Sequence record: PQ438391.1
Source of the DNA: Escherichia phage vB_Eco_T-01
Length of the DNA: 64,000 nt
Strand: one strand, 5' to 3'
Shown here: piece by piece, positions 11,548 to 11,785 of the stretch
How positions within the stretch are numbered: position 1 is the first letter of the stretch
Layout: every line of letters begins with the position of its first letter
The notes under the pieces: model-generated
Database searches by the model: none
What the model was told of the DNA's origin: nothing
What the model saw: only the letters and a program-made list of their open reading frames with translations
Made by a program: the position numbers and the translations under genes

Positions 11548-11699
11548 TTTTAAATCCCTATCTAAATGATAGGGCTTTTTGGTATCTAGGCCTTTCCAGG
11601 CCTCTCTAGACATCATTTAGTTTCTACCCTTTATAATATATTATCCTATCTTTTAATTGCCCCTCCCGCCCTAGAATTCCCCAAAACTTTTTAAAAATT

Positions 11700-11745
11700 T
11701 TTTCACAAAACTGTTTACATCCCTGTTCTTCCATGGTACTATACA
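11700..11745 (+). promoter_or_regulatory. T4-type early promoter (A/T-rich UP region, GTTTAC -35, TACTAT -10)
   Basis: tttttcacaaaactGTTTACa...tggTACTATacaac; near-identical cassette recurs at 54388..54468. Confidence 0.55.
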
Positions 11746-11785
11746 ACTATCAACTACTGATACAGAAAACAACTTGGAGAATGAA

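Follow-up and report, generated by a model that had tools for sequence, protein, structure and literature searches.

Background

The early promoters of phage T4 join an UP element, a -35 box, a TGn motif, and a -10 box to extra consensus sequence (PMC2988021; PMC1524935). A strong early promoter is also part of the definition of the PeSLs, together with an AT-rich upstream region and an SD sequence with a start codon (PMC4122927, Fig. 3 legend), and for the PeSLs of the PST/T4 pair, the pattern TTTACW-N17-TAYWAT has been given (Comeau et al. 2014, PMC4122927). The papers on PeSLs, one dealing with RB49/phi1 (Arbiol et al. 2010, PMC2839356) and the other with PST/T4 and nt-1/KVP40 (Comeau et al. 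2014, PMC4122927), describe the composite cassette and its part in modular shuffling and stress exchange between neighboring PeSLs, with deletions and mini-circles, whereas the copies analyzed here are separated by 43 kb that contain essential genes. Phage recombination needs only small (<50 bp) patches of homology (PMC2839356 discussion, citing Singer et al. 1982), so that ectopic exchange between such copies would fit the phage recombination system. A cellular parallel is provided by the rRNA operons of E. coli, which undergo concerted evolution (PMC8022953): there, as apparently here, dispersed paralogs engage in non-reciprocal exchange that leaves donor tracts at acceptor loci, but the unit considered here is only ~75-100 bp long, is regulatory and viral, and would recombine on very short homology.

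The window analyzed here, a stretch of 64,000 nucleotides from Escherichia phage vB_Eco_T-01 (PQ438391.1), is Tequatrovirus DNA. It contains two nearly identical early-promoter cassettes, denoted copies A and B, of an element type that is already known and also occurs in the T4 reference genome, where the e.8 and imm.1 promoters occupy the same positions with nearly the same sequence and the same arrangement of UP element, GTTTACA, 17-bp spacer, and TGgTACTAT, with a few substitutions in the window copies. As judged by sequence features, both copies have all that characterizes a PeSL, namely, terminator, AT-rich region, early promoter, SD, and ATG; furthermore, variable small ORFs adjoin them, crossovers fall between the -10 box and the ATG, and indel breakpoints lie within cassettes. 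The gap of 89-140 nt between terminator and promoter at A and B is, however, looser than in the tight PeSLs of the published papers. We consider it probable that A and B are old early-promoter paralogs of the PeSL type that have been kept alike by function combined with occasional ectopic conversion, and that serve as junctions for the exchange of ORFs.

Anatomy of the two cassettes

In T4 coordinates, the window runs colinearly, in descending order, from about 80 kb to about 16 kb, its plus strand being the direction of T4 early transcription. Copy A is located 5' of e.8, and copy B between the stop codon of gene 43 (DNA polymerase) and imm.1; both are on the plus strand, that is, in the T4 early direction, just 5' of an early gene with an SD, and both are orthologous to a T4 early region. 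Compared to T4, the window has orf78 between promoter B and imm.1 as well as two extra genes 5' of A. The components of the two loci are as follows.

11556..11580, plus strand: intrinsic terminator 5' of copy A (stem-loop 11556-11574), from the terminator scan
11691..11788, plus strand: copy A, the e.8 early-promoter cassette, from the promoter scan and T4 orthology
11693-11712, plus strand: UP-like sequence AAAAATTTTTTCACAAAACT of copy A
11713-11719, plus strand: -35 box GTTTACA of copy A, followed by a 17-bp spacer
11734-11735 and 11737-11742, plus strand: TG and -10 box TACTAT of copy A
near 11749, plus strand: +1 of copy A, predicted from the sequence
11776-11779 and 11786-11788, plus strand: GGAG and ATG of copy A
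11786..12049, plus strand: e.8, 87 aa, the gene behind copy A (phrog_2678, function unknown)
54306..54328, plus strand: intrinsic terminator after gene 43, 5' of copy B (stem-loop 54306-54323), from the terminator scan
54389..54480, plus strand: copy B, the early-promoter cassette that lies past gene 43 and ahead of the next ORF, from the promoter scan and T4 orthology
54391-54410 and 54411-54417, plus strand: UP-like sequence and GTTTACA of copy B
54432-54433 and 54435-54440, plus strand: TG and -10 box TACTAT of copy B
near 54447, plus strand: +1 of copy B, predicted from the sequence
54468-54471 and 54478-54480, plus strand: GGAG and ATG of copy B
54478..54714, plus strand: orf78, 78 aa, with a hydrophobic N-terminus, directly behind promoter B (phrog_4189)
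54725..55105, plus strand: imm.1, 126 aa, the first gene behind promoter B in T4

The promoter scan reads TTTACA (compared to TTGACA), a 17-bp spacer, and TACTAT with the TG of an extended -10 in A as well as in B, and in both, the A/T-rich sequence AAAAATTTTTTCACAAAACT abuts the -35 box on its 5' side. We take AAAAATTTTTTCACAAAACT to be a near-consensus full UP element; AAAAATTTTTT plus CACAAAACT resembles a full UP element (Gourse-lab consensus). The terminator of copy A consists of a 7-bp stem, CCCTATC/GATAGGG, followed by CTTTTT, and folds with -12.7 kcal/mol; its equivalent is annotated in the record of phage Lutter. The terminator of copy B folds with -13.9 kcal/mol (z=-2.3) and is annotated as such in G28 and Lutter. 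The depositors of the Lutter genome annotate a terminator along with a promoter at both loci, with coordinates that agree with those given above. The distance from the terminator to the -35 box is 140 nt at A, 89 nt at B, and ~25 nt at copy C, a related promoter described below. The leaders of A and B are about 35-40 nt long and end with GGAG and ATG (35-45 nt downstream).

In each copy, the terminator is followed by an AT-rich UP region, the promoter, a leader that is short and unstructured, GGAG, and the ATG. From the sequence combined with knowledge of T4, A and B appear to belong to a sub-family of T4-type early sigma-70 promoters in which the UP, -35, TGn, and -10 elements are all near optimal, and host RNA polymerase is predicted to start at both immediately after infection. 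Copy A would drive e.8 and the genes downstream, and copy B would restart transcription past the gene 43 terminator into orf78, imm.1, and imm.

A repeat limited to regulatory DNA

The original prediction, that the sequence at 11693..11772 recurs almost identically at 54388..54468, is fully borne out by the alignment, with the sequences in question located where they had been placed. In an ungapped block, 72 of the 75 nucleotides are identical between 11691-11765 and 54389-54463, and the 3 mismatches form a single cluster, TCC vs AGA, directly 3' of the -35 box. The block is followed by a 6-nt length difference (AAACAAC in copy A, T in copy B), and past this indel, the stretch from the SD to the ATG is identical at 15 of 17 positions, GGAGAAT(G/A)AAATG (TTGGAGAAT[G/A]AAATG). 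The repeat search of the window gives 93% identity between A and B across 83 nt. It also recovers weaker variants at 27256-27338 and 28955-29037, each with 67% identity across 83 nt, which confirms the shorter variants anticipated at 27261..27330 and 28981..29030, along with further relatives at 23712-23750 and 39730-39812. The 20-mer TGGTACTATACAACTATCAA occurs exactly 4 times, compared to 0.00 occurrences expected from 100 shuffles, and the 21-mer TTTTTCACAAAACTGTTTACA 3 times, compared to 0.01 expected from shuffles. The A/B repeat is genuine, and chance does not account for such identity.

Both copies are on the plus strand, with 42,698 bp between them. The protein families encoded behind them are unrelated, phrog_2678 in the case of A and phrog_4189 together with phrog_1754 in the case of B, and the duplication is therefore limited to regulatory DNA.

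Identity in excess of the promoter family consensus

The repeat search and the comparison of promoter pairs place A and B within a broader set of early promoters in the window, several members of which are more closely related to them than the rest.

27236..27330, plus strand: copy C, ortholog of the T4 nrdC.10 promoter (repeat search, pair comparison)
27236-27260, 27285-27290, and 27309-27314, plus strand: hairpin with T-run (read by eye from the sequence), GTTTAC, and -10 box of copy C
28984..29045, plus strand: copy D, early promoter 5' of nrdC.9, with GTTTAC at 28984-28989 and the -10 box at 29008-29013
23712..23760, plus strand: copy E, a more distant member with TGGTACTATACAAC in common (repeat search)
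39745..39799, plus strand: a further early promoter with the upstream half TTTTTCACAAAGTTGTTTACA in common (repeat search, pair comparison)

The UP region and the -10/+1 core of copy C are those of A and B, but its spacer is different. The spacer of copy D, AAGACCGTTCCTCTG, hereinafter the D type, is also seen as tracts at locus B of other genomes.

A regular-expression scan for the full early-promoter architecture yielded 19 plus-strand sites in the window, that is, 171 pairs. Over positions -48..+32, the identity of A and B is 0.91, whereas the 171 pairs average 0.47 (sd 0.08); the next-best pairs reach 0.64-0.70, and each of these involves A, B, C (27309), D (29008), or the promoter at 39783. 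The -35 box, the extended -10, and positions +1..+10 are conserved family-wide, and both the +1..+12 sequence ATCAACTAC and the GGAG SD are the consensus across the whole promoter family. The excess of A/B identity over this consensus sits mainly in the UP region (0.80, compared to a family mean of 0.34) and in the spacer (0.79, compared to 0.30). The claim that the identity goes beyond what promoter function requires is supported, relative to the family consensus, by the overall, UP, and spacer identity but is weakest for the 5' UTR, to which it had been specifically extended: ATCAACTAC and the following GGAG are family-wide, and the pair 31987/60657 has a higher leader identity than A/B (0.94 vs 0.88), so that the 5' UTR argument is largely explained.

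This distribution of identity bears on an alternative, pure functional constraint, under which both promoters would have independently reached a sequence optimum, either for maximal strength or for Alt-dependent stimulation, with no exchange between them. Much of the common sequence does consist of recognizable promoter parts (UP-like sequence, GTTTACA, TGn, and -10 box, with ATCAACTAC and GGAG present throughout the family), and extra consensus is known in T4 early promoters (PMC2988021). Nevertheless, constraint as the sole cause appears unlikely given that window promoters of the same architecture have unrelated spacers (mean identity 0.30), that the e.8 and post-gene-43 promoters differ in other genera, and that locus B tolerates at least six spacer variants which are non-random, each being a combination of A and D.

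RNA polymerase contacts leave the spacer identity unexplained, and it is conceivable that another element is hidden on top of the promoter, be it a site within the spacer to which a regulator binds, a leader RNA with a regulatory role, or a small ORF on the antisense strand, the last in line with the minus-strand CDS calls in some GenBank records. However, folding detects no structure in the leaders (z=+0.99 for A and +0.48 for B), and the Rfam search over the whole window yields only tRNAs, with no family at the cassettes; the antisense ORFs start with TTG, encode 30-40 aa, and simply mirror the DNA repeat; and the spacer variation at locus B follows no codon pattern. A hidden element of any of these kinds is, in our assessment, highly improbable.

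Short minus-strand ORFs span the cassettes at 11671-11772 and 54352-54444, and also at 1776-1877 of L010 (minus strand), and in some GenBank records, a minus-strand "hypothetical protein" is called on the cassette, for example, CDS0046 of T2 (PV958097). Most likely, these ORFs are annotation artefacts made by the repeated promoter, and the spurious antisense calls are caused by the cassettes.

The window contains other early-promoter sub-families with a common spacer and +1, namely, 7289-7341/7587-7639, 24524-24561/27553-27590/60130-60167, and 12048-12097/12267-12316. The promoters 7325 and 7623, with 24 identical nucleotides and 298 bp apart, flank an internal-protein gene that is swapped relative to T4, and the promoters 12076 and 12295 flank a 54-aa ORF (phrog_5461) that T4 does not have. 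A 275-bp insertion relative to T4 (27325-27600) starts exactly at the +1 "CTATCAA" of promoter C, ends just past the same CTATCAA motif of promoter 27577, and carries a 66-aa ORF (27352-27552, phrog_6200) as well as a second promoter ahead of nrdC.10.

Orthology with T4 and distribution among phages

T4 has an equally alike pair of promoters at the same two loci, the e.8 promoter at ~70.64-70.72 kb and the imm.1 promoter at ~27.03-27.12 kb. The homology within the T4 pair extends ~13 nt further upstream (GAATTCCCTAAAA) than it does within the window pair; upstream of copy B, the window has TTCATTAAAA where T4 has TTCCCTAAAA. At the diagnostic bases, A of the window groups with A of T4, and B of the window with B of T4. 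Among GenBank phage records, from which the distribution was taken (an exact-pattern scan of IMG/VR gave 7 stretches only), about 548-549 contain the 77-nt cassette, with 7-9 matching places per genome, and practically all of these are Tequatrovirus by host and name. Loci A and B are both occupied in T4, T2, RB14, and every Tequatrovirus genome sampled. A 3-kb query around copy A matched 664 phage records, the best match being Shigella phage A2, with 97%.

The near-identity of A and B is thus inherited rather than newly acquired. The presence of the T4 pair at the same loci, together with the ~548 records, implies that the cassette neither arose by recent duplication nor moves as a free mobile element, contrary to the duplication and mobility initially envisaged. 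The notion of a recently duplicated or autonomously mobile cassette that jumped 43 kb is compatible with the high identity and the sharp boundaries seen in this phage, as well as with the published designation of such elements as "mobile regulatory cassettes" (PMC2839356). Apart from the occupancy of the two loci across Tequatrovirus and the grouping of A with A by diagnostic bases, this scenario runs into the lack of any inverted termini or target duplications common to A and B, where only chance AT-rich palindromes were detected, and of an associated recombinase. We regard such a jump as scarcely credible. What mobility there is would consist in sequence passing between fixed paralogous cassettes and in replacement of the ORFs behind them, in agreement with the PeSL concept (PMC2839356, PMC4122927).

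Outside Tequatrovirus, the cassette changes. The e.8 promoter of JS98-like phages (Dhakavirus) retains GTTTAC, TGATACTAT, and CTATCAAAACAA, with an unrelated spacer and an unrelated leader. Several more distant T4-like groups have an early promoter right after gene 43, with a different spacer and leader, and the first ORF behind this promoter varies from group to group. The post-gene-43 slot is conserved, and the extended cassette sequence is specific to Tequatrovirus. Conservation of the extended identity at every early promoter of all T4-like phages, which would have pointed to a functional constraint rather than mobility, was not observed, the spacers being different both in Dhakavirus and across the promoter family of the window.

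A separate case is phiE142 (KU255730, 121 kb), which is colinear with the window at 87% identity over 10286-12058 (1.8 kb), whereas its DNA-polymerase region is phiC120/ESh27-like, the C-terminus of gp43 being only 63% identical. ESh27 has a single copy of the cassette. The possibility that phiE142 and ESh27 gained one A cassette with e.8 by cassette-borne transfer was considered and rejected, given that phiE142 is instead colinear over the 1.8 kb. Either phiE142 is a genuine mosaic across genera, larger than a cassette, or its assembly is chimeric.

Mosaic alleles at the post-gene-43 locus

Comparison of orthologous loci among Tequatrovirus genomes reveals a difference in spacer variability. 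Locus B was collected from 26 genomes, locus A from 10, and locus D from 5, and each spacer was painted at those positions of the 15 nt where the A and D consensus sequences differ; the spacer painting alone was used because 2-3-nt indel variants confound painting of the leader against the A and D consensus. The spacer at locus A is of the pure A type in all 10 genomes, and that at locus D is of the pure D type in 4 of the 5, with one A-like site in Pu-Krd-SF5. Locus B, in contrast, presents a graded series among the 26 genomes, from pure A through hybrids to pure D. The spacer is pure A in RB14, sb4, and Manna, and of the A type with a D-like end in wV7, ZCEC15, F26, and one IMG contig; the window, T4, RB32, and others have what we call the B type, with a D-like start and the rest A-like; G28, UAB_60, and T2 have a mostly D spacer; and in Pu-Krd-SF5, the spacer is pure D. 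Altogether, there are at least six spacer variants at locus B, each a combination of the sequences of the A and D paralogs. In RB14, the entire A-type spacer is accompanied by the A-specific leader insertion AAAACAAC, ahead of imm.1.

Multi-nucleotide tracts identical to a paralog are hard to obtain by convergence, which argues for at least a few transfers between loci, and the mosaic at locus B points to ectopic exchange between paralogs. In a Hudson-Kaplan analysis of the 26 B loci, in which gene 43 and the cassette were compared with similar numbers of informative sites, the minimal number of recombination events came to ~17 for gene 43 (418 bp) and ~9 for the cassette (105 bp). The four-gamete violations might have been taken for a recombination hotspot at the cassette, but the density in the adjacent gene 43 is comparable, and we claim no hotspot. 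The pattern at locus B would need no more than a few ectopic events that then spread by allelic recombination of the ordinary kind.

It could be argued that allelic recombination is all there is, such that the A-like and D-like alleles are old polymorphisms of locus B itself, shuffled during co-infection and never copied from A or D. Recombination in gene 43 is indeed as dense as in the cassette, and the B loci present every combination of upstream, spacer, and leader type with ORF, as such shuffling would predict. However, the B alleles match A over multi-nucleotide signatures (ATCCCTGTTCTTCCA and, in RB14, also the leader insertion AAAACAAC) and match D over the signature AAGACCGTTCCTCTG, so that at least one inter-locus transfer per type would still be needed. 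We therefore view a purely allelic origin of the mosaic as improbable and favor the combination of ectopic and allelic exchange. The direction of the exchange, from A and D into B, would follow from the 10 A loci and the 5 D loci. Our literature search yielded no paper on the e.8/imm.1 promoter pair or on long-range conversion between promoter paralogs. The A/D mosaic at the post-gene-43 promoter is the only part of this analysis that goes beyond the literature we read, and it is modestly new.

Exchange of the first ORF behind promoter B

The ORF that directly follows promoter B varies as well. Among the 26 genomes, it is imm.1 in 10, orf78 in 13, and the T2-type ORF (MKNIQTN...) in 3, namely, T2, Manna, and RB68; all six combinations of spacer type with first ORF are seen at the 26 B loci. 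The D-type leader is linked to the T2-type ORF in all 3 cases and yet is joined to A, B, or hybrid spacers, and the junction thus lies in the identical -10/+1 core. The orf78 gene is present in 325 phage records, at one place in each, right behind the post-gene-43 promoter, and is missing in T4; its product has a hydrophobic, signal-like N-terminus. The orf78 indel is flanked on both sides by ATGAAAAT.

Of the 42 breakpoints between the window and T4, 6 fall within -60..+50 of an early-promoter -10 box, compared to 1.4 expected (P about 0.002), although the null model is confounded by the fact that indels of whole genes necessarily end between genes; two further breakpoints are located at +56 and +61 of an early-promoter -10 box. 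Most of the other discontinuities between the window and T4 are gains or losses of homing endonucleases. Those at 37272, 38551-38571, 43046-43071, 25256-26219, and 56240-57187 coincide with T4 homing-endonuclease genes or with the nrdD intron, and the genes absent or replaced in the window at such discontinuities are I-TevII, mobC, mobB, mobD, and the segA/beta-gt region.

Probable maintenance of the cassettes by selection and conversion

Under the explanation that we favor, old PeSL-type paralogs maintained by function and occasional conversion, two forces would act on the pair. The first would be purifying selection on the UP element, GTTTACA, TGgTACTAT, the +1 region, and the SD. The second would be occasional non-reciprocal exchange, that is, ectopic gene conversion, between the paralogs via the phage recombination system, which would manifest itself in the A-type and D-type tracts at locus B of other genomes. 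If A and B recombined reciprocally, 43 kb with essential replication genes would be lost, so that only the products of conversion would be expected to be viable. The common core would additionally act as a junction for the exchange of the first ORF, whether imm.1, orf78, or the T2-type ORF.

On a broader proposition, we are evenly divided, namely, that Tequatrovirus early-promoter cassettes undergo concerted evolution over distances of tens of kilobases, the post-gene-43 slot being a recurrent acceptor of sequence from e.8 (A) and nrdC.9 (D), and that this homogenization preserves the homology on which ORF swaps depend. If true, the PeSL idea, so far concerned with local deletions and mini-circles, would extend to directional gene conversion between regulatory paralogs throughout the genome, and if confirmed on all genomes, it would provide a simple, testable account of how PeSL-type homology persists over evolutionary time. 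The practical value lies mostly in annotation, inasmuch as the cassettes mark early transcription units and slots for accessory ORFs in T4-like phages.

Other observations in the window

Just 5' of copy A, the segment 10312-11589 contains two extra paralogous genes, 10389-10862 and 10984-11547, both of phrog_2280 (function unknown). Terminator hairpins lie between and on either side of these genes, at a period of 555-595 bp, and the hairpins at 10315-10338 and 10870-10893 are identical. The T4 counterpart, 70825-70854, has one hairpin and no genes, and the segment looks like a tandem gene-plus-terminator duplication or an insertion.

Six genes, starting at 7365, 10389, 10984, 16112, 16878, and 61969, begin with nearly the same 31-37 nt, ATGAAAACxTAT...GAATTT..., which encode MK[TS]Y..F..E. 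We assume that this start resembles the N-terminal sequence that targets the internal proteins of T4 to the capsid. Several of the six genes are located in the regions of ipI, ipII, and ipIII, whose sequence in the window is replaced compared to T4.

A 49-nt direct repeat, 61566-61614/61923-61971, with 98% identity and 357 bp between the copies, ends with ...AGGTTAATATG, which comprises an SD and a start codon. The overlap of the T4 mapping at this repeat (19128 vs 19176) suggests that a small tandem duplication of a gene took place near gene 61.1/61.2.

The Rfam search also detects a tight cluster of eleven tRNA matches at 8612-9629, one of these barely above the threshold (30.2 bits, 9199-9278), compared to eight in T4; near this cluster, the T4 segB region is replaced in the window.
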